From contig NZ_OZ250154.1 in NCBI RefSeq assembly GCF_965237845.1, positions 195,121-259,120 on the forward strand: a DNA stretch of 64,000 nucleotides, given 5' to 3'. The position numbers and the translations under genes were made by a program. Below the pieces are notes generated by a model that was given only the letters and a program-made list of their open reading frames with translations, made no database searches and had not been told where the DNA came from. The DNA comes from Candidatus Spongiihabitans sp. GTDB lineage: Bacteria > Pseudomonadota > Gammaproteobacteria > Arenicellales > Poriferihabitantaceae. Position 1 is the stretch's first letter, and the number at the start of each line of letters is the position of its first letter. Shown here piece by piece: positions 8,817 through 36,978 of the stretch.

Positions 8817-9918
8817 TACGGTTGTTGACATTGGCTTGCTGGGCCTGTTGCTGGCAACGACACTATTGATAATGCGCAGCCAAAGTGCGTTGTCGATTAC
8901 CATTCTATCGTCAATTTACAGTTTAATACTCTGCGCCCTGTTTGTGGTGCTGGATGCGGTGGATGTGGCTTTTACTGAAGCCGCAGTGGGGGCGGGAATT
9001 TCATTGATATTGTTTGTTGCCGTCATCCGGCACAATGACGAGCCAAGCAATAACAAACCGGGCAATAACAAACCGGGCAATAACAAACCGGGCAATAACA
9101 AACTGGGCACTGACGCGCCAGGATTGAAGTCTGCCTGGCCCTCCGGGCTATCCATCTGCCTTGGATTGGCGCTCGGTATTTTGCTCATTTCAGGCACCAC
9201 AGACATGCCATTGTATGGCGATCCAGCGGCAGCCATCCACCATTATTTGGCGCCGCGCTTTCTTGGTCAGTCGGCCGCTGAGATCGGCATTCCAAACGTG
9301 GTAACCTCGGTGCTGGCTAGCTATCGAGGCTACGATACACTGGGAGAAGTGGTGGTGATTTTTACTGCTGGAATGGCGGTATTACTGTTGCTGGCGGAGG
9401 GGGCGGTTACAACTAAACCGCTCGGCAAACAGCCTGGGCTTTGGTCTCGGCGCGACCCGCTCATTTCAAACCCGGTGCTAAAAACAGTGTTGTTGCGATT
9501 TATCCCAATCGTGATTTTGTTTGCATTGTATGTGCAATTTCATGGTGACTATGGTCCCGGCGGCGGCTTCCAGGCCGGGGTCATTTTCGGTGCCGGACTG
9601 ATTACGTTTGGCCTGCTTACCGATTCGGAAAAATTGCAAAGCGTAATCAGCGAAAGAATAGTCATATCAGGCATGGCCTGCGGTGTTCTGCTATACGGCT
9701 CGGTGGGTGTGGCGGCGCTTTTTTTTGGCGGGGATTTTCTCGATTATTCTGTTTTTAATTACTCGGTGCTGTCTGAGTCGCAAACAGCCGGGCAACACCT
9801 AGGGGTTTTTCTGATTGAACTCGGAGTCGGCATCACGGTGGCATCGACCATAGTGTCGCTATTTATAAGTTTTAATCGGCGCCATTTTAATCAAAGCCAG
9901 GATGAATTTCCGGGATGA
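8809..9918 (+). CDS. Fused MbhD/MrpA-C-terminal-like (DUF4040) and MrpB/MnhB subunit
   Basis: 369 aa. The N-terminal 75 aa form a DUF4040-like membrane segment. A repeat linker follows, then an MnhB-type region (SYRGYDTLGEVVVIFTAGMAVLLLL). Confidence 0.7.
   Translation: MINTVVDIGLLGLLLATTLLIMRSQSALSITILSSIYSLILCALFVVLDAVDVAFTEAAVGAGISLILFVAVIRHNDEPSNNKPGNNKPGNNKPGNNKLGTDAPGLKSAWPSGLSICLGLALGILLISGTTDMPLYGDPAAAIHHYLAPRFLGQSAAEIGIPNVVTSVLASYRGYDTLGEVVVIFTAGMAVLLLLAEGAVTTKPLGKQPGLWSRRDPLISNPVLKTVLLRFIPIVILFALYVQFHGDYGPGGGFQAGVIFGAGLITFGLLTDSEKLQSVISERIVISGMACGVLLYGSVGVAALFFGGDFLDYSVFNYSVLSESQTAGQHLGVFLIELGVGITVASTIVSLFISFNRRHFNQSQDEFPG
9046..9105 (+). repeat. In-frame 15-bp tandem repeat x4 (GGCAATAACAAACCG) encoding (NNKPG)4
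   Basis: Read directly: agcaataacaaaccg ggcaataacaaaccg ggcaataacaaaccg ggcaataacaaactg. Confidence 0.95.
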
Positions 9919-10334
9919 GCGCCTTTGAAACTTTGTTCGGCGGCCTGCCCGGATTGCTCAATTACTGGATAGCGATCGCATTATTGGTCTGTGGATTGAT
10001 CATAGTCATGGATAGTCGCAATCTCATCAAAAAACTAATTGGACTTAACATTTTTCAATCTGCGGTATTTTTACTGTTTATCACCATGGGGAAAGTGAGC
10101 CAAGGCCATCCGCCCATCCTGCCGTCCATCATGCCCGCAGCGAATGTAGAAGGGGCGATTTCCAATTTCAGCAATCCTTTGCCGCATGCACTGATCCTTA
10201 CCGCTATTGTGGTCGGGGTGGCAACCACGGCCGTCGGCCTGGCGCTAATCGTTCGAATTCGTCGCGCCTATGGCACTGTTCACGAAGACCAGATAATGGA
10301 TAAACCGGAAGTGGAACCGGAAATCATGCCATGA
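9915..10334 (+). CDS. mrpC: Cation:proton antiporter subunit C (MrpC/MnhC, NuoK-like)
   Basis: 139 aa, 3 TM, LIGLNIFQSAVFLLFITMG motif. Its start overlaps the upstream stop. Confidence 0.8.
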   Translation: MSAFETLFGGLPGLLNYWIAIALLVCGLIIVMDSRNLIKKLIGLNIFQSAVFLLFITMGKVSQGHPPILPSIMPAANVEGAISNFSNPLPHALILTAIVVGVATTAVGLALIVRIRRAYGTVHEDQIMDKPEVEPEIMP

Positions 10335-11902
10335 CCGACCTCCTGAGTCGGCACCTACCCATTCTACAGGTCGTTGTTCCTCTGCTGATTTCGCCTTTTT
10401 GCGTTGTCCTGGGCAGTCGTAATTTGGCACGGATATTAATGGTATCGACCGCGGTTGTCATGTTTGCGATCAGCGCGATGCTGCTCGGCGGCGTATTCAA
10501 TGGCGAAGTTTATATCTATCATCTGGGTGGCTGGGCCGCGCCGTGGGGAATCGAATACCGGGTTGATCATTTAACCGCGTTTGTATTGTTCACCATCAAC
10601 CTGATCCATCTATTAGCGTCGATATTTTGTTTGGGCAGGACCGACGACAATATCGGCCACGCCGCCCGCCCGGTTTTTTACACGGCCTGGCTGCTCTGCA
10701 TTGCCGGGTTGAATGGCATGGTGGTGACCAACGATGCATTCAATGTTTTCGTATTTCTTGAAATCAGCTCGCTGGCTGCCTATATGCTGATCAGTTGCGG
10801 CCGCGACCCCAAAGCGATACTGGCCGCTTATCGTTATCTGATTGTAGGCGCAGTCGGGGCAACATTTGTGTTGCTGTCGATTGGTCTTTTGTATATGCAA
10901 ACCGGCACCCTGAATATTTCCGATCTCTCCCGAATCATCGCCGAACGCGGTGCCGACCGGACAATAATTATGGCGTTGTCATTTTTTATTATCGGAATCG
11001 GCATCAAGTGCGCGATATTTCCGTTGCATGACTGGCTGCCGAATGCATATAGTTTTGCACCGAATTCAGTCACCGTTCTTTTGTCCGGGACGGCCACAAA
11101 AGTAGCGCTCTACGTCATGCTGCGATTTTTGCATGACTTGTTTGGCGCGAATTTCAGTTTTACCGAAATGCCCCTGGATATCGTGTTAATACTCTGTGCG
11201 ATTTTGGGAATGTTGCTGGCGCCGATAGCCGCGTTGCGGGAATCAAACCTGAAACGCATGTTTGCTTGGTCAAGCGTGGCGCAGATTTCCTATATCGTCA
11301 TGGGCATTGGGATAGGCACTACCGCCGGAACGGCGGCCGCTTTGCTGCATTTGTTTAACCACTCGATTATCAAGGCGGCGATATTCATGGCGGTCGGCAT
11401 CGTCATCGCCCGCACCGGCACTGCCCGAATCAAGCTTTTGGGCGGCGTTGCCCACGGCCATCGGTTTGCCTGCTACGCCATGTTGTTCGGCGGGCTCGGC
11501 TTGATTGGCATTCCGGGCACGGTGGGTTTTGTCAGCAAATGGGTATTGGTGACGGCGGCGGTGGAGAAAGGCTGGTGGTGGTTAGCCATCCCTGTGCTTG
11601 CAGGATCATTAGTCAGTGCCGCCTATGTTTGGCGTATCGTCGAAACCCTGTGGACGAAACCGACCGCCATGGAAGGTGGGAGTGCAGATATTGCAAGGAG
11701 CAAATATCTGCCCGCGGCAATCAATCTCGGCCATATGCCAAACACAGGCGGCGCGCCGCTCCACATCGTTGAATGGTTGCCTTTAATGGTGTTGACCGGG
11801 TTGGCCCTGTGGTTCGGGCTTAATGCCTCATTCACAAGCGATCTTGCGATACGGGCAGCGGCCAGCCTGATTAACCCCGAATCCATGAGTCTAAGCCAAT
11901 GA
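10331..11902 (+). CDS. mrpD: MrpD/NuoN-family proton-translocating antiporter-like subunit (copy 1)
   Basis: 523 aa polytopic protein with the proton_antipo_M-type core (FLEISSLAAYMLI...WLPNAYSFAP...). ATGA overlap with mrpC. Confidence 0.8.
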   Translation: MTDLLSRHLPILQVVVPLLISPFCVVLGSRNLARILMVSTAVVMFAISAMLLGGVFNGEVYIYHLGGWAAPWGIEYRVDHLTAFVLFTINLIHLLASIFCLGRTDDNIGHAARPVFYTAWLLCIAGLNGMVVTNDAFNVFVFLEISSLAAYMLISCGRDPKAILAAYRYLIVGAVGATFVLLSIGLLYMQTGTLNISDLSRIIAERGADRTIIMALSFFIIGIGIKCAIFPLHDWLPNAYSFAPNSVTVLLSGTATKVALYVMLRFLHDLFGANFSFTEMPLDIVLILCAILGMLLAPIAALRESNLKRMFAWSSVAQISYIVMGIGIGTTAGTAAALLHLFNHSIIKAAIFMAVGIVIARTGTARIKLLGGVAHGHRFACYAMLFGGLGLIGIPGTVGFVSKWVLVTAAVEKGWWWLAIPVLAGSLVSAAYVWRIVETLWTKPTAMEGGSADIARSKYLPAAINLGHMPNTGGAPLHIVEWLPLMVLTGLALWFGLNASFTSDLAIRAAASLINPESMSLSQ

Positions 11903-13350
11903 CCCCGATTGGGCTGGCTGTGCTGATTCCTTTTATTGGCGCTTGCGGGGTTGTGGCGACGCGGAAATCTCCGCTGATTCGAAACTGTGTGCTGGTTATC
12001 TCAGGTTTGGTCAATCTTTTTCTGTTGGTTTATTTACTGCTGGGCCGAGAAAATTATGACTCGGTTCAGGTTTTATTCGAAACCCTGCCGGGATTAAGAA
12101 TTGCTTTTCATATTGAGCCTCTGGGATTGATATTCGCGTTAACCGCCGGGTCGCTGTGGCCGATTACATCGGTGTATGCCATCGGCTATTTAAATGCCGG
12201 TAACGACCCGCATCAAACCCGATTCCACGCCTTGTTTTGTGTCGCCATGGGCAGCGCCATGGGCATCGCTTTCGCAGAAAACTTGTTTACCCTGTTTCTG
12301 TTTTATGAAATCCTGACCTTTTCCACCTGGCCGCTGGTTACCCACAGCAGAACACCCAAAGCCATCGCCGCAGGTCGGGTCTATCTCGGCGTGCTGTTGA
12401 CCACCTCATTGATTTTGTTTTTACTGGCCATTGTTTTGGTCGGCAGCTACGGCAGCGGATTGTCATTTATTCCCGGTGGTGTGCTGTCAAATGTGTCGCC
12501 GACCCTTACCGCCGTATTGCTATTGCTGTTTCTGTTCGGGATTGGCAAGGCGGCAGTCATGCCTTTTCACCGCTGGCTGCCTAACGCCATGGTTGCGCCC
12601 GCACCGGTGAGCGCGTTGCTGCATGCCGTGGCCGTGGTAAAGGCAGGGGTTTTTTCGATCCTGAAGATCAGCGTCTATATTTTTGGGTTTGACGCGTTGT
12701 CGTCCCTGCGTCTGAACGATATTATGCTGCACGATATTATTTTGTGGATACCCGCAATCACTATTCTATTGGCATCGGTAATCGCGATGCGGCAGGACGA
12801 CATAAAAGCGCGCCTGGCTTACTCCACGGTCAGCCAACTCTCCTATATCGTGTTAGGAGCGCTGATGGCCAATCAGATGGGGATGATTGGCGGCGCAATT
12901 CACATCACCATGCACGCTTTTGGCAAAATCACGCTGTTTTTCTGTGCCGGTGCGATCATTGTTTTTTCGAGCAAGAACAAGGTCTCAGAAATGAACGGAT
13001 TGGGCCGATCAATGCCCTGGACATTCGTTGCATTTTTTATCGCCGCATTGTCCATCGCAGGTCTGCCGCCTACCGGCGGCGTTTGGAGCAAATGGTATCT
13101 CGCTTTGGCGACTCTGGAGACCGGGCAGTTTGGTTTGCTTGCGGTGCTGATGATCAGCTCGCTGTTAAACGTGTATTACCTGTTATCCATTCCGCTCAGG
13201 GCATTTTTCCTGCCGGCTGATGAGCCACCGCAGGCGTTGGAAAATCGTGCGTCCATGGTCGCGCCATTGACACTTACCGCAGCAGTTAGCCTGCTGCTTT
13301 TCTTCATCGCCGATGGGTTGGCGAGTTTCATTGGAGAAATTCAACCATGA
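11899..13350 (+). CDS. mrpD: MrpD/NuoN-family antiporter-like subunit (copy 2)
   Basis: 483 aa, FYEILTFSTWPLV...FHRWLPNAMVAPAPVSALLHAVAVVKAG motif. Overlapping start and stop with its neighbour. Confidence 0.8.
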   Translation: MTPIGLAVLIPFIGACGVVATRKSPLIRNCVLVISGLVNLFLLVYLLLGRENYDSVQVLFETLPGLRIAFHIEPLGLIFALTAGSLWPITSVYAIGYLNAGNDPHQTRFHALFCVAMGSAMGIAFAENLFTLFLFYEILTFSTWPLVTHSRTPKAIAAGRVYLGVLLTTSLILFLLAIVLVGSYGSGLSFIPGGVLSNVSPTLTAVLLLLFLFGIGKAAVMPFHRWLPNAMVAPAPVSALLHAVAVVKAGVFSILKISVYIFGFDALSSLRLNDIMLHDIILWIPAITILLASVIAMRQDDIKARLAYSTVSQLSYIVLGALMANQMGMIGGAIHITMHAFGKITLFFCAGAIIVFSSKNKVSEMNGLGRSMPWTFVAFFIAALSIAGLPPTGGVWSKWYLALATLETGQFGLLAVLMISSLLNVYYLLSIPLRAFFLPADEPPQALENRASMVAPLTLTAAVSLLLFFIADGLASFIGEIQP

Positions 13351-13595
13351 TGAAAAAATTTACTTCATTGTCGATAGGGCTGCAACGCGGCTTAAAAATA
13401 TTTTTCGTATTATGCGCGCTGGTGACCTTGCTCGATTTTATTGTTCTCGGTTTTATCGGCGCCGACCACAGTCAGCATTGGTGGAACTTTTTCGGCTTCC
13501 ACAGTTTGTACGGATTTGCCGCCTGCGTGGTGTTGGTGCTGGTTGCCACGGCGCTACGTCGCATCGTTATGCGGGATGAAGACTACTATGATTAA
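13347..13595 (+). CDS. Small two-TM membrane protein embedded in the mrp-like cluster
   Basis: 82-aa ORF, translationally coupled on both sides (ATGATG at 13347; the next ATG at 13588 lies inside its last codons). Hydrophobic helices. No recognisable family. Confidence 0.5.
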   Translation: MMKKFTSLSIGLQRGLKIFFVLCALVTLLDFIVLGFIGADHSQHWWNFFGFHSLYGFAACVVLVLVATALRRIVMRDEDYYD

Positions 13596-15285
13596 CGCAC
13601 CATTTTTAGTTTTCTTCATCGGCGCAGCTATCGTTCTGGCACTGCCGGGACGCTCAGAGCGATCCGGGCGATTACGAAAAATTGTGATGCTGGCAGTGCC
13701 GCTGGCAGGGTTAATCAATCTGCTGACCTTAGACCAGACCACGGTGTGGCAATTACAGTGGCTTGACCTTGACCTGGTGCTTTTCACCAGCGACCGATTA
13801 AGTTTTATTTTTGGCATACTGTTTCATATCGCCGCGATCATCGCCACAATCTATGCCTGGCATGTCAAAGACCGCCCCCAGCAAGCGGTCGCGCTATTGT
13901 ATCCCGGCAGTGCCCTTGGCATCGTTTTCGCCGGTGATTTTTTGACCCTGTTCGTATTTTGGGAATGCCTGGCGTTAACCTCGGTATTTTTTATCACCGC
14001 TAGGGCAACCCCGCGGGCAATTAAATCCGCGATCCGATATCTGGTGTTTCAGGTCGTGTCGGGCGTGCTCTTGTTGACCGGCAGCTTGTTGATGCTTCAC
14101 CAAACCGGCGGCATTGCGATTGGGCCGTTGGACATGACCGACCCCGGGGCGATATTTTTTCTGCTTGCTTTCGGCATAAAGGCGGCCTTCCCGATGTTGC
14201 ACAACTGGTTGACCGATGCCTATCCAGAAGCCACAGTCAGCGGCACAGTGTTTCTCGGCGCGTTCACCACCAAGGTCGCGGTCTACGTTTTAGCGCGAAC
14301 GTTCACGGGATTGGACGCATTGATTTACATCGGCATGGCGATGGCATGCTTCCCGATTTTCTACGCGGTCATCGAGAATGATTTAAGACGGGTGCTGAGT
14401 TACAGCATGATTAACCAGATTGGATTCATGGTTTGCGGCATCGGCATTGGCACCGAGCTGGCTGTGAACGGGGCCGTGGCGCATGCCTTCAACGATGTCA
14501 TTTTCAAGGGCTTGTTAATGATGTCTATGGGCGCAGTATTATTCCGAACCGGCGACATGCGCGCATCCAATCTTGGCGGGTTGTTCCGAACCATGCCAAA
14601 AACCACCGCGCTTTGTCTGGTCGGCGCAGCCTCGATTTCAGCGTTCCCGTTGTTTAGCGGATTCGTCAGCAAATCCATGGTGATGGCGGCGTTGCTGCTG
14701 CAACACCATGAATTCGTTTGGCTAGCCATGCTGTTTGCGTCTGCCGGGGTATTCCACCACGCCGGCATTAAAATTCCCTATTTCGCCTTCTTCGCCCACG
14801 ACTCCGGATTGCGTCCTGAAGAAGCCCCTCGGCACATGTTAATCGCCATGAGCATTGCCGCAGCGTTGTGTATTTTTGTCGGCAGTTTTCCGCAGTTGCT
14901 TTACCGCCACCTTCCATTTGCTGTGGACTATGCGCCTTTCGAGCTTCCGCATGTGGTTGAGCAGGTTCAACTGCTATTCTTTTCTGCCCTGGCCTTCATC
15001 TGGTTGCAGTTAAAAAACATCTACCCCGCGGAACTCAAATCCACCAACATCGACAGCGAATGGCTTTATCGAAAATTTTGGCCGGCGATTTATACTACAG
15101 CCTGTGCGATAGCGCAAAAACTGCACCTTGGAATTAACGGTTTCGCGTCAGCGACTGCGACGATGCTAACGCCGATGGCAAGAAAACAATCTTATGATTT
15201 GCTGATGCCCTGGTCGGTGCGCGCTATGCTCATGGTTGTCATGGCTTTCCTGGGTGTTGTGCTGGGGTTGTTTTACCTCGTCTAG
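13588..15285 (+). CDS. MrpD/MrpA/NuoL-family antiporter-like subunit (copy 3)
   Basis: The start was set at the ATG at 13588 (MINAPFLVFFIG...). The upstream 49 codons of the computed ORF overlap the 82-aa gene. Core motifs FWECLALTSVFFI and HNWLTDAYPEATVSGTVFL. Confidence 0.8.
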   Translation: MINAPFLVFFIGAAIVLALPGRSERSGRLRKIVMLAVPLAGLINLLTLDQTTVWQLQWLDLDLVLFTSDRLSFIFGILFHIAAIIATIYAWHVKDRPQQAVALLYPGSALGIVFAGDFLTLFVFWECLALTSVFFITARATPRAIKSAIRYLVFQVVSGVLLLTGSLLMLHQTGGIAIGPLDMTDPGAIFFLLAFGIKAAFPMLHNWLTDAYPEATVSGTVFLGAFTTKVAVYVLARTFTGLDALIYIGMAMACFPIFYAVIENDLRRVLSYSMINQIGFMVCGIGIGTELAVNGAVAHAFNDVIFKGLLMMSMGAVLFRTGDMRASNLGGLFRTMPKTTALCLVGAASISAFPLFSGFVSKSMVMAALLLQHHEFVWLAMLFASAGVFHHAGIKIPYFAFFAHDSGLRPEEAPRHMLIAMSIAAALCIFVGSFPQLLYRHLPFAVDYAPFELPHVVEQVQLLFFSALAFIWLQLKNIYPAELKSTNIDSEWLYRKFWPAIYTTACAIAQKLHLGINGFASATATMLTPMARKQSYDLLMPWSVRAMLMVVMAFLGVVLGLFYLV

Positions 15286-15316
15286 TTATTCTTAGAACGT
15301 GGCATCGAGTATAGAT
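15284..15316 (-). repeat. Copy of a dispersed intergenic repeat (CTATACTCGATGCCACGTTCTAAGAATAACTA on the minus strand)
   Basis: The same core GATGCCACGTTCT...AAGAAT is seen at 24110-24144, 28109-28180 and 28251-28322. Confidence 0.7.
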
Positions 15317-15427
15317 TTAATAAACTAATGTATTTTAATTCAGGCTCGTGGCCGTTCCTTGAAAATATTAGGGTTGCAACGTTGAGCTACTTGTCAGGGC
15401 ATTTGTAAATTATTGCAGCATCAATAG

Positions 15428-15492
15428 GGTTGACAATATAACCAATAAGGTTGACAATATTATTCTTTAAGGTTGACAATCAAGGTATTGAC
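15428..15492 (+). promoter_or_regulatory. Array of phased direct repeats (3 x GGTTGACAAT plus a degenerate 4th, AAGGTATTGAC) directly upstream of the wHTH gene
   Basis: Repeats at 15428-15437, 15449-15458 and 15471-15480, spaced 21-22 bp. A degenerate copy lies at 15482-15492, and the ATG is at 15495. Each box contains a TTGACA -35-like hexamer. Confidence 0.6.
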
Positions 15493-15494
15493 TT

Positions 15495-16526
15495 ATGGTA
15501 GGTATTCGTAAAAGAGGTGAAGATATCCGCCAATTTATATTAAATAATGTTGAGCATAACCCGAAAGATATAGTTGCTCTTACATCTCGTGCATACGATA
15601 TATCCAGACAGGCAGTAAACAAGCACATTAAACGTCTTGTTGAAAAAAACGCACTTTTAGAGCGTGGCGCAACCAGGAATAAGCGTTATATTTTGCATCC
15701 ATTAGTTAAATGGGAACACATCTATACTTTAAATGGCACTTTGGCAGAGGATGCGGTTTGGCGCGGAGATATTTCTGAGTTTATAAATGACTTGCCAGAT
15801 AACGTCATTGATATTTGGCACTATGGTTTTACTGAAATACTTAACAATGCAATTGACCACTCATCTGGCACGCAAGTACATATACAGATTACAAAAACTG
15901 CTACTACAACTGAAATCGTAATATATGACGATGGCGAAGGTATCTTTAAGAAAATTCAGCGCGAATTAGAATTGAGTGATGAGCGCCATTCAGTTTTAGA
16001 GCTGGCTAAAGGTAAATTAACAACTGACCCAGACAATCACACTGGTGAAGGGATTTTCTTTAGCTCACGTATGTTTGATGATTTTGCAATATTGTCTGGC
16101 AGTGTATGTTTTTCACACAAACATGATCAAGTTGAAGATTGGATTTTAGAGCGTCAAAAATTTCAATCTGGTACGGGTGTATTTATGGTGTTATTCAATA
16201 ACACAGCAAGAACACCAAAATCTGTCTTTGATAAGTTTACATCTGGAGATGATTACGGCTTTACCAAAACTGTCGTCCCAGTCCGATTAACACAGTACGG
16301 CCATGATAATCTGGTTTCTCGCTCTCAAGCTAAAAGACTGTTAGCGGGGGTTGAGAAATTTGAAACTGTTATTTTTGATTTTGATAATGTTGAAACGATT
16401 GGGCAAGCGTTTGCTGATGAAATATTTCGTGTTTTCAAATTGCAGCAACCAGATATGGAATTAATTTACTTGAATTCCAACGAGCAAGTAACACAAATGA
16501 TTACACGAGCCTTGTCGCGAGAGTAG
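15495..16526 (+). CDS. wHTH - GHKL/HATPase_c-like ATPase - STAS-like (DUF4325-type) protein
   Basis: 343 aa. N-terminal ArsR/MarR-like wHTH (ISRQAVNKHIKRLVEKNALL). GHKL N-box ILNNAIDHS, G1 box YDDGEGIF and G2 box HTGEGIFF. C-terminal VIFDFDNVETIGQAFADEIF resembles a STAS-like/DUF4325 domain. Confidence 0.65.
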   Translation: MVGIRKRGEDIRQFILNNVEHNPKDIVALTSRAYDISRQAVNKHIKRLVEKNALLERGATRNKRYILHPLVKWEHIYTLNGTLAEDAVWRGDISEFINDLPDNVIDIWHYGFTEILNNAIDHSSGTQVHIQITKTATTTEIVIYDDGEGIFKKIQRELELSDERHSVLELAKGKLTTDPDNHTGEGIFFSSRMFDDFAILSGSVCFSHKHDQVEDWILERQKFQSGTGVFMVLFNNTARTPKSVFDKFTSGDDYGFTKTVVPVRLTQYGHDNLVSRSQAKRLLAGVEKFETVIFDFDNVETIGQAFADEIFRVFKLQQPDMELIYLNSNEQVTQMITRALSRE

Positions 16527-16630
16527 CCCTAACGCTTCGCATCACAGATAGCAAAAAGTGGGGCGGCTGGAGCGTAGCGGAAGCCGCGGTGCTTTATGAT
16601 GCCCACTCCATTTGTAACTTGCGATAAAGA

Positions 16631-16650
16631 TGGGCCTTAACTGTAAGACC
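16631..16650. repeat. Palindromic motif copy (GGGCCTTAACTGTAAGACCC)
   Basis: An imperfect copy of the 22-bp palindrome GGGTCTTAACTAGTCAAGACCC found at 35836-35857 and, in part, at 18080-18101. The flanking GATGGG and CCCTTAT/CCCTAGAT are also similar. Confidence 0.75.
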
Positions 16651-16657
16651 CTTATCG

Positions 16658-16735
16658 ACAGTTTTCCGCAGTTACTTTACCGCCTCCTTTCATTTGCTGT
16701 GGGCTATGCGCCTTTCGAGCTTCCCTATGCTTGTA
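16658..16735 (+). pseudogene. Partial diverged copy (left arm plus core) of an internal segment of the last mrp gene
   Basis: CAGTTTTCCGCAGTTACTTTACCGCCTCCTTTCATTTGCTGTGGGCTATGCGCCTTTCGAGCTTCC aligns to 14883-14948 with a few mismatches. It encodes SFPQLLYRLLSFAVGYAPFELP versus SFPQLLYRHLPFAVDYAPFELP. Confidence 0.8.
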
Positions 16736-17331
16736 GCATCAAACGGTGTTTTATAAAGCTCATTTACTTGCCACAAACCACTTTTTACGATTTTTTCTTT
16801 TGGCGAACTATTGCCAAGCCAATCATTTGACGGTTTACATTCATCACACCTTGAGATTGTAGCGATTAGTTTTGATTCAATATCCAGCCGCTCTTCCTTG
16901 TTTTTTACTTCAAAGGTAGCGAACGAGAAATTGCCCTGGATGTACTGGCTAACCTGGTTTTCAATATTCTTTTGGTAATCAAAATCGATCAGCGAAGAGT
17001 ATTTATCTTTTGCCTTTTTTGTGACGAGATTACGCTCCCAGTATTTTAAAAAAGGATCATTGTGCTGGCTAAGTAAAGCCCTGCCAATATTCTTTCTGAA
17101 AATACTTCGATCTTTATTCTCGTTAAGGAAATGTTCCTCCAATCTTAAACGAAGTCGACTCTCTCCCGTGTGCGTACCTATTCTCACAATTCTTTCCTTC
17201 TGGTGCCCATACTCGCCTTTTTGAAACAAAACATAGATGCCATTCAATGGAATATTTGATGCCTCAAAGGGAAATTTATGCCTCTCAAGTTCATTGGCAA
17301 GTCTATGAACTGAAGAACATTCACTACTCAT
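16690..17331 (-). CDS. GIY-YIG-like nuclease-family protein (tentative)
   Basis: 213 aa. NGIYVLFQKGE...IVRIGTHTGESRLRLRLEEHF...IFRKNIGRAL resembles a GIY-YIG core. The C-terminal part contains CDECKPSNDWLGNSS...SGLWQVNEL. Its ATG overlaps the stop of the upstream gene (ATGA at 17328-17331). Confidence 0.5.
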   Translation of the reverse strand: MSSECSSVHRLANELERHKFPFEASNIPLNGIYVLFQKGEYGHQKERIVRIGTHTGESRLRLRLEEHFLNENKDRSIFRKNIGRALLSQHNDPFLKYWERNLVTKKAKDKYSSLIDFDYQKNIENQVSQYIQGNFSFATFEVKNKEERLDIESKLIATISRCDECKPSNDWLGNSSPKEKIVKSGLWQVNELYKTPFDATSIGKLERRIAHSK

Positions 17332-17807
17332 GTAACCAACCCCTTGAGCCTTTGTAGCTGCTCTCCAATACGCAGACCCTCAAGTGGTATTTGTGCATTC
17401 TTGATATGCGGCAACAAATACTTCCTATATTTATCTCCGGCTAGAAACGTAAACTCCGTTTCATTAATAGAGCAAACTTGCTTTATTTGATCAAGTACTC
17501 TACTTGCCCATTGTTTGATTTCATTTGAACGCATATTGTTCAGAGTTTGCTCATACGGCTCAATTTCCTGACCTAAAGGCAACAACCCATACTTTGCGGA
17601 AAGAATAAAGATTTTATCGGGTTCCAGTTTTTTTGCGTATTTCAGATTGAGTTTAAAGAGTGTACTGATGTACAGGTCCTTTGCCTTCGCACTGCGCGAA
17701 AGTTTTTTACTTACACATGAAATTAGAACTATCCGTTTTGGCATAACTTTTCTTTTGTGTGTCCGCTGAATGCTTTTGTTAGATTTATTTTCGAGTAATG
17801 CCCTCAA
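17328..17807 (-). CDS. DUF6884-like protein (tentative); the real start is probably the ATG at 17744
   Basis: The 159-aa ORF contains RIVLISCVSKK...AKDLYISTLF...IFILSAKYGLL...IEPYEQTL...FLAGDKYRKYL...PLEGLRIGEQLQRL, the pattern I associate with DUF6884. The N-terminal 21 codons overlap a gene fragment. Confidence 0.5.
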   Translation of the reverse strand: MRALLENKSNKSIQRTHKRKVMPKRIVLISCVSKKLSRSAKAKDLYISTLFKLNLKYAKKLEPDKIFILSAKYGLLPLGQEIEPYEQTLNNMRSNEIKQWASRVLDQIKQVCSINETEFTFLAGDKYRKYLLPHIKNAQIPLEGLRIGEQLQRLKGLVT

Positions 17808-17988
17808 TAGAACTCACAGGTCCCATCGCAGATATTTGTACTCTGAGTTCGTTCTTTAGGATGAAGCCACCGTTTTCTTCACTTGTTTTCAACAACTCCC
17901 AACGCACAAAATCAGTTCTAAGTTTCTCTTTTGCAGTTTGGATTGCCTGAGCCAGTGCCTCATCAAAACTTCCATTTTGAGAAACACC
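17785..17988 (-). pseudogene. Start-less dodecin-like fragment
   Basis: An open frame GVSQNGSFDEALAQAIQTAKEKLRTDFVRWELLKTSEENGGFILKNELRVQISA resembles the dodecin fold consensus (GsS..SfedA...A..tlrn..w.ev.e.rG....G). It has no start codon and a stop immediately upstream. Confidence 0.3.
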
Positions 17989-18055
17989 TTAAAACCTCTC
18001 TAAATTTCTTCTCCGTAATTCGGGAACGATTGTAATACTTGTTTTTCCTTTTCAT
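17963..18055 (-). pseudogene. 30-codon ORF resembling the N-terminus of a small transposase-like protein (IS1595-type?)
   Basis: MKRKNKYYNRSRITEKKFREVLRCF... resembles N-termini I recall from IS-associated proteins. It runs out of frame into the dodecin-like fragment. Very tentative. Confidence 0.2.
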
Positions 18056-18079
18056 AACTAGTACTTTAAGCAATTTTTA

Positions 18080-18101
18080 GTTGCTTAACTAGTCAAGACC
18101 C
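18080..18101. repeat. Palindromic motif copy (GTTGCTTAACTAGTCAAGACCC) exactly at the truncation point of intI
   Basis: 18 of 22 nt (CTTAACTAGTCAAGACCC) are identical to 35840-35857. IntI homology starts at 18102. Confidence 0.8.
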
Positions 18102-18839
18102 TTGGTATTTATGTATAAGCAGGTGTTGGATATGAAGCCACCCTGGGTAACCGATGTGGTTCGTGCCAAGCCTAAGAAAAATATCCCTGTGGTATTAACG
18201 CGTGCTGAGGTGGTACGGGTGTTGTCGCATCTAAAAGGGCGTTATTATTTAATGGGACAACTGCTTTATGGCGCGGGGCTGCGGTTAATGGAGGTGGTGC
18301 GGTTGCGCGTTAAGGATATTGATTTTGGTTATAAATCGATTATTGTGCGTGATGGCAAGGGCAATAAAGATCGAGTAGTGATGTTGCCTGGTAAATTGAT
18401 TAAACCTTTACAAAGCGTTTTAAAAGAGCGCAAGCAGGTGTTTGATCAAGATTTAGCGAATGGTGTAGGCAGTGTTTATCTGCCTAATGCCCTGGCTAAA
18501 AAATATCCCAATGCTCAGAATGAGTGGATTTGGCAATTTGTATTTGCCTCACCGAATCTGTCAGCAGACCCGCGTACCGGTGTTGTGCGCCGTCATCATA
18601 TTTATGATCAATCTATTCAAAGAATGATTAAGCAGGCAACGCGTGATGGGCGCATTAGCAAAAAAGTCAGCCCGCATACTTTACGGCATTCTTTTGCTAC
18701 GCATTTATTAGAAACCGGTTATGATATTCGCACTATTCAAGAATTACTTGGGCATAAACATGTTGAGACTACGATGATTTACACGCATGTATTAAAACAA
18801 GGTGGGCAAGGGGTGCAAAGTCCATTAGATGTCTTATGA
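18102..18839 (+). pseudogene. intI: Integron integrase IntI, 5'-truncated (about 85-90 N-terminal residues missing)
   Basis: 245 aa collinear with the C-terminal three quarters of IntI1. It includes the integron-specific insertion [42 protein letters not shown] and the catalytic R...K...HTLRHSFAT...LLGH...MIYTHV. The frame is closed by TAG at 18090. Confidence 0.85.
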
Positions 18840-18950
18840 GTTATATGGGATGGATTTAGTTATGCTTCCCGGCTTGAGGCGGAAATACGGGACACCTACA
18901 AAATATTGACTCATGTCAGGCGACCGATAAGCCGGATGTTTCGTGGATGT

Positions 18951-19009
18951 CCTGTGGACTATGCGCCTTTCGATCTTTCCCATGTGGTCAAGCAGGTTCA
19001 ACTGCTGTT
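18951..19009 (+). pseudogene. Partial diverged copy (core plus right arm) of the same internal mrp segment
   Basis: CTGTGGACTATGCGCCTTTCGATCTTTCCCATGTGGTCAAGCAGGTTCAACTGCTGTTC aligns to 14921-14979. Confidence 0.8.
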
Positions 19010-19040
19010 CCCATTAGAGCAATGACTGAGATTTTCGACA

Positions 19041-20180
19041 ATGTCTGTAGAGTACATTAAGCAGGCGCTTAATACGGTGAAGCATCCGGTTTCGTCATCG
19101 CTAAGCCTGCCCCCCGCTTGTTACCATGATGAGGAGTGGTGGCGCCATGAGACCGTCTGTTTGTTCGGCAATGGCTGGTTCTGTATTGGGCGCGCTGATC
19201 AGTGGCAGGCACCCGGGGATTTCGAAGCGATCAATGTGGCCAATATTCCGGTCGTGATCATCATGGGCAAAGACCATAAATTACGCGCCATGTCCAATAC
19301 ATGTTTGCATCGCTCGAGTCAGATCATGTCTGGCAGTGGAAATTGTCGCGCCATGGTATGCCCATTCCATGGCTGGAGCTACGATGCCACAGGCCAGCTG
19401 ATTGCTGCGCCGAGGATGGAAACGGCAGAATGCTTTTCGGAAAATGAACATCAATTAAAACCGTTTAATGTGGCGCTCCAGGATGGTTTCGTATTCTTGA
19501 GTTTGCAAGATAATCCAGAGCCGTTGCATCAGTGGTTAGGAGATTTTTCGGACTTGCACCGCGCCTGGTCATTTAATGACTTGGCGACCAGCCGGCGGCG
19601 AAGTTTTGAGGTCGGCTGCAACTGGAAATTATTCATCGAAGTATTCAATGAATACTATCACCTGCCCCATGTACACCCGGATTCCATCAACGGGTTGTAT
19701 CCAGAGCCGGACTCGGCGGATGATGTCATCGGCCAATACACCAGCCAGTTTGGTCGAACCTCGGGCAATGCGGCCTTGCTTGAGATTGCACAACAGCAGG
19801 GCCGGTCCCTGCCGGTTATAAAATCACTGGATGAGACCCAGCGAACGGGCATGCGCTATACCTGGGTTTATCCGAATATGACCTTTGCCGCGAGTTCAGA
19901 CTGTTTATGGATGTATCATGTTTATCCATTGAGCGGCGCAAGCACCCGGGTAGTGCAAACCGTTTGTTTCCCCGCAGACACCGCTAAACTGAACGACTTC
20001 AATGCCAAGTCGGCCGAGTACTACAAGCGTTTTGATTTGGCCATAGACGAAGATATTCCGGCGCTGGAAAAACAACAGACTGGAATGCAGTCTCCGTACG
20101 CGGTTCAAGGGCGTTTTTCCGCGCTGGAGCCGAGCGTCGGCAACTTCGCCTGTTGGTATTCCGAAGCCACTCGTAAGTAA
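19041..20180 (+). CDS. Rieske [2Fe-2S] aromatic-ring-hydroxylating oxygenase alpha-subunit-like protein
   Basis: 379 aa with the Rieske motif CLHRSSQ...CPFHGWSY and a C-terminal catalytic-domain pattern (NEYYHLPHVHP). Confidence 0.8.
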   Translation: MSVEYIKQALNTVKHPVSSSLSLPPACYHDEEWWRHETVCLFGNGWFCIGRADQWQAPGDFEAINVANIPVVIIMGKDHKLRAMSNTCLHRSSQIMSGSGNCRAMVCPFHGWSYDATGQLIAAPRMETAECFSENEHQLKPFNVALQDGFVFLSLQDNPEPLHQWLGDFSDLHRAWSFNDLATSRRRSFEVGCNWKLFIEVFNEYYHLPHVHPDSINGLYPEPDSADDVIGQYTSQFGRTSGNAALLEIAQQQGRSLPVIKSLDETQRTGMRYTWVYPNMTFAASSDCLWMYHVYPLSGASTRVVQTVCFPADTAKLNDFNAKSAEYYKRFDLAIDEDIPALEKQQTGMQSPYAVQGRFSALEPSVGNFACWYSEATRK

Positions 20181-20787: not shown

Positions 20788-20800
20788 GCTTCATTTCCAC

Positions 20801-21022
20801 GCCTCGAGTGGTTATCTCTGGTTCGGGCGCGAGTGTGCTTTGTAAGAAGAACAGGGTCAAATGCTGGAAGGCTCGGTACTCGTTCCTGAAAAATATTCAT
20901 GCCCGAAGTGCGCCTCGAGTGGTTATCTCTGGTTCGGGCGCGAGTGTGCTTTGTAAGAAGAACGGGGTCAAATGCTGGAAGGCTCGGTACTCGTTCCTGA
21001 AAAATATTCATGCCCGAAGTGC
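20801..21022. repeat. Intergenic tandem duplication, 2 x 111 bp (1 mismatch)
   Basis: Unit gcctcgagtggttatctctggttcgggcgcgagtgtgctttgtaagaagaac(a/g)gggtcaaatgctggaaggctcggtactcgttcctgaaaaatattcatgcccgaagtgc occupies 20801-20911 and 20912-21022. Confidence 0.95.
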
Positions 21023-24109: not shown

Positions 24110-24144
24110 TTGATGCCACGTTCTAAGAATTTATAAACAAGGTG
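24110..24144 (+). repeat. Copy of the dispersed intergenic repeat (TTGATGCCACGTTCTAAGAATTTATAAACAAGGTG)
   Basis: Shares GATGCCACGTTCT and AAGAATTTATAAAC(A/G)AGGTG with the zapE upstream repeat units. It ends at the GTG start of the next gene. Confidence 0.7.
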
Positions 24145-24978
24145 AAAAAGACCGCCCAACAATTCAGGCAATGGCCAAACAAAGCGATTACCCTGCTGGG
24201 AATGTCCGGGGTGGGCAAGACAACGTTATCCACCAGGTTGCCGCGCGAGTCCTGGTTCCATTATTCCGGAGATTATCGAATAGGCACCAAATACCTTGAC
24301 GAGCCAATTTTGGATGACATTAAAACCAGAGTCATGGAAAATCAATCGATTAAAGAGTTGCTGCGCAGCGATTCAATATATATCCGCAATAATATAACCA
24401 TCGATCATCTGCATCCACTGTCATGCTTTTTGAGCAAGATCGGAAATCCTGATCTCGGCGGGTTAAATGTGGACGAATTCAAGCGTCGCCAAAACTTGTT
24501 TTTCGCTGCAGAAATTAACGCCATGGCGGATGTTCGTGAGTTCATGGAAAAAGCCCGGAAAATTTATAGTTATCCGCATTTCATCAATGATGCCGGGGGC
24601 AGTATATGTTACCTGACTGACCAGGAATGTTGGAACAACCTGAATGAATTGACCGTGGTTTTATATTTGCGTGCCAGCGATGATATGGAGAAAACATTGG
24701 TTGAGCGCGCCGGGAAAAACCCCAAGCCTTTGTTTTATGAAGAAAATTTTTTGGATCAACATTTGGCCAGATACCTGGAAGAAAACAATTTAAAATCGAC
24801 AGATGAAATGGTGCCGGATGAATTCGTGCAATGGGTTTTCCCCAAATTGATTAACTATCGCAAACCCCGGTACGAACGCCTGGCAGAAAAATATGGTCAT
24901 ACCATAGAGGCGGAAAAGATTTTTAAATTGCCGGAAGATGCGGACATTATCGATTTGGTTTGCGAAAGCATGTCATAG
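24142..24978 (+). CDS. P-loop NTPase (shikimate-kinase-like fold), function unknown
   Basis: 278 aa, GTG start, Walker A GMSGVGKTT. Confidence 0.6.
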   Translation: MKKTAQQFRQWPNKAITLLGMSGVGKTTLSTRLPRESWFHYSGDYRIGTKYLDEPILDDIKTRVMENQSIKELLRSDSIYIRNNITIDHLHPLSCFLSKIGNPDLGGLNVDEFKRRQNLFFAAEINAMADVREFMEKARKIYSYPHFINDAGGSICYLTDQECWNNLNELTVVLYLRASDDMEKTLVERAGKNPKPLFYEENFLDQHLARYLEENNLKSTDEMVPDEFVQWVFPKLINYRKPRYERLAEKYGHTIEAEKIFKLPEDADIIDLVCESMS

Positions 24979-28054: not shown

Positions 28055-28322
28055 ATGATTTTAAAGGAACGAGCACGAGCATGAATTCAAGAGCAAACTT
28101 AAACATAACCTATACTCGATGCCATGCTCTGCTATGCCCGATCAAAGATTTAGACCGAGGTGCAAGAATTTATAAACGAGGTGTACTTCGCATCATATGA
28201 TTTTAAAGGAACGAGCACGAGCATGAATTCAAGAGCAAACTTAAACATAACCTATACTTGATGCCACGTTCTGCTATGCCCGATCAAAGATTTAGACCGA
28301 GGTTCAAGAATAACTAAACGAG
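28039..28322. repeat. Tandem duplication, 2 x 142 bp (about 95 percent identical), including the first 16 nt of zapE and its upstream region
   Basis: Copies at 28039-28180 and 28181-28322. Both start gtgtacttcgcatcatatgattttaaaggaacgagcacgagc... I counted 7 mismatches by eye. Confidence 0.95.
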
Positions 28323-35685: not shown

Positions 35686-35835
35686 TCTTGCAATGCGACT
35701 ACAGGTTAGCGTTATCGGTTATTATTTGTTGATTATCAATCAGGTTTTTTCTCATCGCTCGATCGTTAGTTTCGAGTAATGTAGAGTAACTAGACGCTCG
35801 CTGAATTCAAGCGTTAAGCCGCTTCAATAAATGAT

Positions 35836-35857
35836 GGGTCTTAACTAGTCAAGACCC
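35836..35857. repeat. Perfect-armed 22-bp palindrome GGGTCTTAACTAGTCAAGACCC
   Basis: The 7-bp arms GGGTCTT/AAGACCC flank AACTAGTC. Related copies occur at 16631-16650 and 18080-18101. Confidence 0.85.
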
Positions 35858-36028
35858 TAGATATTTATCACTTAATGTTTGATTTTTCAAAAAATTTAGG
35901 AGATTCAGATACTTAACCTTACAAACACAAATATACCAACGACTAGGATAAATCCATCCAACCTGCTAAGAATAGGGAGCAGTCATACACATAACTTATG
36001 CTACAATACACATTTTAAGGAGTTAAAA

Positions 36029-36274
36029 ATGCTAAACACCGCCCACAGAACCAACATCGTTTTAGATGAATCTATCGTCCAGGAAGCCCTAAAACTCAGC
36101 AAACTAAAAACTAAGCGAGCTTTGATAGATACTGCCTTGAGGGAGTTTATCAGCAACCATAAACCCAAAAATAGCATGGCGGCATTATTAAAATCATTGA
36201 ATGGCGAAAGCCCTTTTTATGATGACTACGATTATAAGGCGATGCGTGTTAATCCACACCTACCCAAAGGCTAA
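36029..36274 (+). CDS. vapB: Type II antitoxin, VapB family
   Basis: 81 aa, RTNIVLDESIVQEALKLSKLKTKRALIDTALREFI. Lies immediately upstream of a PIN gene. Confidence 0.8.
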   Translation: MLNTAHRTNIVLDESIVQEALKLSKLKTKRALIDTALREFISNHKPKNSMAALLKSLNGESPFYDDYDYKAMRVNPHLPKG

Positions 36275-36277
36275 CCT

Positions 36278-36670
36278 ATGTATCTGGCTGATACCTCAAT
36301 CTGGATTGACATACTCAATAATAACGCAAGTAATAACAACAAAGAATTATTTGCATCTGGAAAATTGGGGCTAACTTCCACGATTTATCTTGAAGTGTTG
36401 CAAGGCTCTAAAAATACAGTGCTATTCAAGAAAATCAAACAGGTGCTACTTGAGCAAAAATTTTATTACCTCAAAGACCAAAAAGAAAGCTACGAACAAG
36501 CCGCCCTCATCTACTCAAAATGCCGTAAAAAAGGCATCACCATCCGCGCCAGCATCGATTGCCTCATCGCCCAATGTGCCATCGAAAACGACTTGATTTT
36601 ATTACACAACGATCAAGATTTTGAGCGCATTGCCAGCGTTATCCCAGAATTTAACCAAACAATATGCTAG
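36278..36670 (+). CDS. vapC: PIN-domain ribonuclease toxin VapC
   Basis: 130 aa, MYLADTSIWID (first acidic residue)...EVLQG...IDCLIAQCAI...LLHNDQDFERI. Confidence 0.8.
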   Translation: MYLADTSIWIDILNNNASNNNKELFASGKLGLTSTIYLEVLQGSKNTVLFKKIKQVLLEQKFYYLKDQKESYEQAALIYSKCRKKGITIRASIDCLIAQCAIENDLILLHNDQDFERIASVIPEFNQTIC

Positions 36671-36978
36671 CCACCATCATTTTTAATGCCGATAAAATAA
36701 AATTTGGAAAATAAAATGCTAACACTTGATAATGTGCATGATACTGATTTTGATAAACTAAAGATTGATGAGCAATGGAATTATGAATATGAGATAGAGC
36801 ATAGAATGCACCATATTCATGAAAATGTTTTATAAATTTTATTCAGGTGGGTTTATTCGTTAGACTGCATCAATATAGTTTGTTCTCGTTTCCGTCGTTC
36901 TGGTTCATCGTTACTCCAGTGCGGTAATATCGCTAACTTTCATAGCAAATCCCCATTATCGACCTAATCATCCTGCAA

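Follow-up and report, generated by a model that had tools for sequence, protein, structure and literature searches.

The window analysed here comprises 64,000 nucleotides (nt) from Candidatus Spongiihabitans sp. (assembly GCF_965237845.1, contig NZ_OZ250154.1, forward-strand positions 195,121 to 259,120), and positions given below without a locus label are counted from its first letter. Within it, an AT-rich island at 15377–19012 lies between mrpD, the gene for subunit D of a Na+/H+ antiporter, and a Rieske oxygenase gene, and it carries a shortened integron integrase gene (intI), the left end of an insertion sequence (IS), two overlapping minus-strand genes, a regulator-like gene and several eroded recombination sites. 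We consider this island to be, very probably, a sedentary chromosomal integron that has been inactivated. Its GC content is 0.401, compared with 0.525 in mrpD and 0.518 in the Rieske gene; kilobase by kilobase, it stays at 0.39–0.43 across 15001–19000, with 0.51–0.54 on either side, and is back up from 19001 onwards. A preliminary description, made from the letters alone, had noted an AT-richer accessory stretch after the mrp cluster, which is borne out (flanks of ~0.52), and the open reading frames (ORFs) on the program-made list that went with it are all present in 15286–19040, three of them being backed by Pfam or NCBIfam. It had also placed the switch right at the mrp stop: the foreign DNA is real, but the first ~90 nt (15286–15382) are a host repeat, so that the foreign DNA begins only at ~15377. 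In five related species (loci L001–L004 and L007), the Rieske gene starts 38–200 nt past the mrpD stop and is followed by dsbB, as it is in the window, and 15377–19012 is an insertion between these otherwise neighbouring genes. Across 80 related loci, no homologue of IntI, of the minus-strand pair or of the regulator-like gene lies within 10 kb of mrpD; the closest genomes are metagenome-assembled genomes labelled Arenicellales or Candidatus Poriferihabitaceae, with MrpD identities of 73–80%. An Rfam search of the island gave no match.

The integrase gene occupies 18102–18839 on the plus strand and lacks codons 1–79, its remaining frame being open. The product scores 375 bits against TIGR02249 'integron integrase' (cut-off 265) over model positions 72–315, is 84.9% identical to residues 80–324 of its closest full-length relative (P0002), and aligns to residues 76–318 of VchIntIA (2a3v) with an E value of 4.6e-66, including the HxxR motif and the terminal tyrosine. 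This alignment runs unbroken across the IntI-specific segment, the family-specific extra domain, and the gene can thus be assigned to the true integron integrases, with ~79 N-terminal codons gone; the missing residues make it very unlikely that the protein is active. The open frame, 245 codons of DNA with 43% GC, fits a recent truncation, as does the absence of the interrupting IS from a sister strain that is 97.7% identical. Relatives whose IntI is 74–84% identical carry ordinary small chromosomal integrons at other loci, with attI and minus-strand cassettes upstream of intI. A metagenome scan with IntI recovered relatives at 53–59% identity only, none of them at the mrpD locus. In the window, no attI site is found by the intI start; codon 80 directly abuts an IS1595-type repeat.

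That repeat belongs to a 103-nt filler (17999–18101, minus strand), which seems to be the left end of an IS1595-family element that has replaced attI and the 5' end of intI. It is made up of a terminal inverted repeat (IR; 18084–18101), a leader and the first ~22 transposase codons, and the minus strand encodes MKRKNKYYNRSRITEKKFREVL. The terminal repeat AGGGTCTTGACTAGTTAAG (reverse complement of 18084–18102) resembles AGGGTCATGACTAGAACAG, the repeat of the annotated IS1595 element of T. lovleyi pIAE1, and the first 26 residues of the transposase of that element are 65% identical. The match spans 22–26 N-terminal residues and one terminal repeat, the DDE domain and the second repeat having been deleted; thus, compared with IS1595 elements, only 103 nt survive at the intI break, and no more than bare repeat stubs are left of the other two copies in the window. 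One of these stubs, GGGCCTTAACTGTAAGACCC (16632–16653, minus strand), was recognised by eye; it differs from the IRs at 18084–18101 and 35836–35857 by two missing bases and one substitution, abuts a fragment of mrpD, and was also flagged as a hairpin. Neither the window nor the loci retrieved for comparison contained a complete IS copy. The sequence CTTAACTAGTCAAGACCC, which resembles the attI junction of relatives, was considered as an attI-like simple site and rejected, as both peptide and motif match an IS1595-family element.

What the break has removed can be read from a sister strain. A search with the GIY-YIG-like protein of the minus-strand pair led to L084, a long-read contig of 10.5 kb (ENA ERZ25072730), which is colinear with window positions 11052–17998 and 18102–19671 at 97.7% identity. 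Where the window has the 103 nt of 17999–18101, L084 has 1933 nt, consisting of an attI junction (CCTAAC followed, across the junction, by TATAGTAGACATCC) of the same type as in the relatives L081 and L082, the 5' end of intI, and three cassettes encoding an 85-aa secreted-type protein, a 93-aa GIY-YIG protein and a protein of at least 307 aa. The minus-strand pair of the window is the fourth cassette of this array and is read away from intI. The IS1595 stretch is absent from L084, and since it is missing at intI in the sister strain, the insertion must be later than the integron. The window retains the last 67 codons of cassette 3 (17785–17998, minus strand), the full gene of at least 307 aa being intact in the sister strain; this fragment gave no Pfam family match. 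Cassette content is variable, with three additional cassettes in L084, different first cassettes in L086 and L087, and an empty locus in the five related species. These comparisons settle much of what the preliminary description had proposed. The transposase-like N-terminus appears to belong to the IS1595 family; the genes on the minus strand are placed and oriented as cassettes, both in L084 and, with a folding attC, elsewhere; and other sequence has indeed taken the place of attI and the intI 5' end. A truncated integrase was rightly recognised, although the loss amounts to ~79 codons rather than 85–90, and the start-less fragment called dodecin-like is real and is the cassette-3 remnant, but the likeness to dodecin lacks Pfam support.

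The two cassette genes on the minus strand overlap by 4 nt and had been noted earlier as a GIY-YIG-like/DUF6884-like pair, which the family searches uphold. The upstream gene, PDC-M57A (17328–17744; the DUF6884-bearing ORF on the list spans 17328–17807), encodes 138 aa and matches PF21818 (2.8e-46) and the PADLOC profile PDLC04712 (5.7e-60). It keeps the CxxxK and LSAxxG motifs of DUF6884, a domain with a YaaA-like DNA-binding fold (PMC11701544). The downstream gene, PDC-M57B (16730–17331), encodes a putative GIY-YIG-type nuclease that matches PDLC04713 with an E value of 2.9e-95 and is placed in PF26468 (GIY_YIG_3) by precomputed Pfam assignments, the local Pfam copy giving no match; its sequence shows the GIY...RIG pattern with G31, Y33, R47, R50 and G52 invariant, and its AlphaFold model has a predicted local distance difference test score (pLDDT) of 92. 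Homologues of M57B are 211 aa long, 65–83% identical and spread across phyla. The PADLOC matches cover almost the full length of both genes, which are adjacent; the pair is the PADLOC candidate defence system PDC-M57, with the DUF6884 protein as A and the GIY_YIG_3 protein as B. In comparison with PDC-M57 as catalogued, M57B of the window has lost its last ~8 codons, its homologues ending differently, and the reading frame closes with 12 codons and a stop supplied by a fragment derived from mrpD; moreover, the cassette has lost the context proximal to the cassette promoter (Pc). We infer an anti-phage role for PDC-M57, with abnormal DNA being recognised by the DUF6884 protein and cleaved by its GIY-YIG partner. 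The two genes occur together, with the same 4-nt overlap, in six other loci (L090–L095). In L090 they adjoin SIR2 and TIR genes, and such defence-island neighbours are only circumstantial evidence for phage protection. Two of these loci, L092 and L094, have a GTTAGCC box ahead of M57A and the stop of M57B inside a GGGCTAAC box, and the attC, 87 nt long, folds with an energy of -23.2 kcal/mol (z -5.0), so that the pair there has the make-up of a canonical integron cassette. No papers on PDC-M57 were found in the literature searched.

The attC sites that should separate the cassettes are dead stubs in the window, and no functional attC survives. Between the cassette-3 remnant and M57A lies a 44-nt stub (17741–17784, minus strand; TCTAAC...GTTATGC), which is also found in L084 and folds no better than shuffled sequences (z +0.7). 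The attC of the PDC-M57 cassette has decayed to 16527–16618 (minus strand), where the R' box GTTAGGG survives; this stretch is homologous to the 3' half of the M57 attC of L092 and 78% identical over 68 nt to an attC in the L087 array, and its DNA folds no better than shuffles (z +0.5), as opposed to z -5.0 for the L092 homologue. The outer end of the array is marked by a third stub (15377–15399, minus strand) with the boxes GTTGAGC (15381–15387) and GTCAGGG (15393–15399); a block conserved in L088 starts at 15377, and L088 has GTTAAGC...GTTAGGG at the same place. A sequence model was built from 13 attC sites of relatives, and its two best matches in the window, 17761–17784 (E 0.022) and 35797–35816 (E 0.09), both fall in AT-rich islands, the former in the island described here and the latter in a smaller one. 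A generic scan for boxes plus hairpin recovered only some known sites and was not used for any negative claim. The preliminary description had offered a decayed chromosomal integron or a CALIN-like remnant (cluster of attC sites lacking integron integrases) as alternatives. The former is what L084 supports; the label CALIN does not apply, because the locus still has an intI pseudogene and the search gave no attC able to fold, and 'degraded complete integron' describes it better.

The outermost cassette gene (15495–16526) is read on the plus strand, antisense to the array and convergent with the PDC-M57 genes. Its 343-aa product was earlier described as wHTH-ATPase-STAS-like, which has held up: Pfam finds HATPase_c_2 (3e-8) and DUF4325 'STAS-like' (7.5e-14), and the AlphaFold model (pLDDT 78) matches SpoIIAB (1l0o, E 7.6e-5, template modelling (TM) score 0.76), RsbW (TM 0.76–0.81 for SpoIIAB/RsbW), STAS domains and winged-helix proteins, including the winged helix-turn-helix (wHTH) of Z-alpha. 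It combines a wHTH, a SpoIIAB/RsbW-like GHKL kinase and a STAS-like domain in one chain. The N, G1 and G2 boxes of the GHKL domain are invariant in the family, whose members are 70–92% identical across many metagenomes, and in three independent contexts core-site boxes mark the limits of the conserved cassette block. Its homologue in L088 lies antisense within a toxin-antitoxin-rich array, and that in L089 is solitary between housekeeping genes. Ahead of the gene, at 15428–15494 (plus strand), stand three direct GGTTGACAAT repeats and one GGTATTGAC variant, with two sigma-70-like matches; the GGTTGACAAT repeats are conserved upstream of the homologues in L088 and L089, and each holds a perfect -35 hexamer. 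This stretch is likely to be the promoter and operator of the gene itself, with the repeats forming an operator array for autoregulation, and we infer that the protein is a one-chain partner-switch regulator which represses its own promoter. No functional work on DUF4325 was found in the literature. The nearest studied analogue appears to be CapK/CapS, the likeness being one of domain kinds: immune operons are controlled in CapK/CapS and VapKSC by a kinase that resembles anti-sigma factors and has a STAS-domain substrate (PMC13373217). Both systems have a DNA-binding (w)HTH, a SpoIIAB/RsbW-like GHKL kinase and a STAS-type domain, as judged for the window protein from Pfam and Foldseek, and both occur on mobile, defence-rich DNA. 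However, CapK is an HTH-STAS-kinase (GHKL) protein that works with a separate STAS-wHTH protein, CapS (PMC13373217), whereas the window protein is a single chain in the order wHTH-kinase-STAS; and the capK-capS pair lies upstream of an immune operon, whereas the window has neither a partner gene nor such an operon downstream.

Taken together, these features suggest how the locus may have reached its present state. In the working form, for which the sister strain is the model, intI would read toward the Rieske gene, with attI just upstream and a short array running back toward mrpD. An IS1595-family element would then have inserted in intI near codon 80, and a deletion spanning from within the IS to cassette 3 would have taken most of the IS, intI codons 1–79, attI, the first two cassettes and the greater part of the third, leaving the 103-base stub; the cassette promoter would have been lost along with attI. 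The order left on the minus strand is the cassette-3 stub, a dead attC, the PDC-M57 cassette, an insert of mrpD fragment and IS stub, the decayed M57 attC and the wHTH cassette, whose gene faces the opposite way under its own promoter. Because no complete integrase, attI or foldable attC remains, cassettes can no longer be acquired, excised or reordered in this array. Like sedentary chromosomal integrons, the locus has a chromosomal intI of the integron-integrase family, an attI with an array read away from it (in the sister strain), and small cassettes of defence and toxin-antitoxin type. Unlike them, its array is very short and its attC sites are eroded, and the 5' end of the integrase gene and attI, probably together with the cassette promoter, have been deleted via IS1595, so that the array is frozen.

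Several observations weigh against this account, or at least against parts of it. The best hit of a structure-aware attC model in the window had an E value of 2.2; this model is narrow, and IntegronFinder was not run. The structure derived with RNAalifold had no pairs, and a structure given by hand was used for the covariance model, which finds only three sites in six other loci and misses most attC sites in independent integrons. The sister strain is represented by a long-read contig of 2x coverage, its attC sites are eroded too, and its intI is read in three frames; these frame breaks may be sequencing errors at such coverage or real decay, in which case the L084 integrase would itself be broken. 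On the side of the cargo, both the part of PDC-M57 in defence and that of the wHTH protein are predictions, and when the M57B model was compared with the PDB by Foldseek, every match had an E value of 1 or more, T4 EndoII appearing only at E 7.6. Finally, a simple integron model does not predict the decayed fragments of mrpD within the island, for which there is only a partial explanation.

These fragments derive from a segment of the live mrpD, here termed A (14876–14979, plus strand), and were found by repeat search and blastn. Fragment B (16652–16729, plus strand) is a decayed copy of 14876–14953 and agrees with A at 70 of 78 bases; fragment C (18947–19010, plus strand), a decayed copy of 14916–14979, agrees at 56 of 64 and sits between intI and the Rieske gene, 107 nt from the stop of the former and 30 nt from the latter. 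As orthologues in other species are only 70–76% identical to A, both fragments must have originated in this lineage or in one closely related to it. Fragment C keeps the ancestral GAT and CTG states of the orthologues, A and B share derived ones, and the spacer after C resembles, by eye, the native mrpD–Rieske spacer of L001. Fragment B lies inside the PDC-M57 cassette, between the truncated M57B and the M57 attC and beside the IS repeat stub, and is for this reason regarded as a secondary, IS-associated insert. For C, our provisional view is that a second copy of the mrpD 3' region, since decayed, was either brought in or generated by the integron.

The repeats also invite a different reading, in which a tyrosine recombinase would have brought a site-specific integrative element into mrpD, with A, B and C as attL, hybrid site and attR of two tandem elements. 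The three direct copies of a 38-nt core (14916–14953, 16692–16729 and 18947–18984), the recombinase gene beside the last of them, and the repeat of a host-gene end that also flanks the integron of L082, 67 nt from leuS, are what such an element would lead one to expect. Integration of this kind is hard to reconcile, however, with an mrpD that is complete and of native length, matches NF009310 'Na+/H+ antiporter subunit D' end to end (659 bits) and has a GC content of 0.49 in its 3' part, or with a recombinase that is a typical integron integrase accompanied by attI and cassettes in the sister strain. B marks no element boundary, since it lies within the PDC-M57 cassette by the IS stub and cuts off the end of M57B, and B and C, which overlap over the 38 core bases, agree at only 32 of them. 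The att-site interpretation of A, B and C was rejected for these reasons, and the integrative element, already largely refuted, is extremely improbable. Another possibility is that the locus was built, or its cargo brought in, by composite transposition or recombination mediated by IS1595-family elements, with the integron parts as passengers. Repeat stubs do occur at three junctions, by fragment B (16632–16653), at the intI break (18084–18101) and at the edge of the second AT-rich island (35836–35858), but the IS at the intI break is missing in the sister strain and so arrived after the integron, the cassette boundaries fall at integron core sites and not at IS ends, and the window lacks a complete IS copy. 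We regard this route as very unlikely.

Host-gene repeats around integrons are not confined to this locus. The integron of L082 is flanked by a 67-nt direct repeat of the leuS 3' end (L082:7222–7288 and 10974–11040, 91% identical), and that of L083 by a 482-nt direct repeat of host sequence (L083:6570–7051 and 11024–11505, 97.7% identical); L083 also has a second, internally deleted copy of attI-intI. Such flanking repeats were seen at three of the six testable loci of the clade and at none of 19 distant integrons. The attI-intI module of 1142 nt is 100% identical between L081 and L082 (positions 9842–10983 in each), two contigs of one assembly in which the integrons occupy different housekeeping loci with different cassettes and flanks; this identity would reflect either recent copying of the platform or gene conversion. 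A 58-aa DUF2442 gene stands just past the intI stop in L086 (6021–6197) and L087 (4888–5064), and the L086 array holds a 78-aa DUF2442 cassette; here, too, an integron may have related sequences at either side. It is conceivable, though rather doubtful, that the 'sedentary' integrons of this clade have been transferred or relocated as whole units by recombination anchored in a short host-gene segment, leaving direct repeats of that gene on both sides. If this were true, it would account for the position of fragment C beyond intI and of the live mrpD at the far end of the array.

The locus itself is an ordinary decayed integron and leaves the understanding of integrons unchanged; its interest lies in the cargo genes and in the host-gene repeats. 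It does, however, catch integron decay between strains, one of which keeps attI and the 5' end of the integrase gene, the other having lost both through IS insertion and subsequent deletion. The preliminary description had singled out the locus as the most likely place in the window for an undescribed function. The PDC-M57 pair is already catalogued in PADLOC as a candidate; the wHTH-kinase-STAS gene has no published function. Anti-phage cassettes are known from sedentary chromosomal integrons (Darracq et al., bioRxiv 10.1101/2024.07.02.601686), and the presence of PDC-M57 among integron cassettes agrees with the view that such integrons store anti-phage systems. The wHTH-kinase-STAS gene forms a single-gene cassette that is widespread and unusually conserved, and its building blocks match those of the newly described CapK/CapS damage-sensing regulators.

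A second small AT-rich island (35690–36975, plus strand; GC 0.37) separates an acyl-CoA dehydrogenase gene from valS. It contains a VapB-PIN toxin-antitoxin pair (Pfam, 2.2e-14 for VapB and 8.6e-13 for PIN), an attC half-site (35797–35819) and a solitary IS1595 IR (35836–35858), and is probably a stranded toxin-antitoxin integron cassette.

The host repeat directly 3' of the mrpD stop (15286–15382, no strand assigned) lies outside the foreign DNA and belongs to an intergenic family of ~85–95 nt, with copies at 28058–28130 and 28200–28272 (reverse strand) and a short form at 24112–24147. The family reads AGAACGTGGCATC...GCTCGTG..CGTTCCTT.AAAAT.TTAGGG, the middle part being absent from the 24.1-kb copy, and its members look like repetitive extragenic palindromic (REP) sequences or miniature inverted-repeat transposable elements (MITEs). 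Just upstream of dsbB, at 20800–21021, a 111-nt unit is present in two tandem copies that are 99% identical, and part of this unit resembles the 3' part of the same family.

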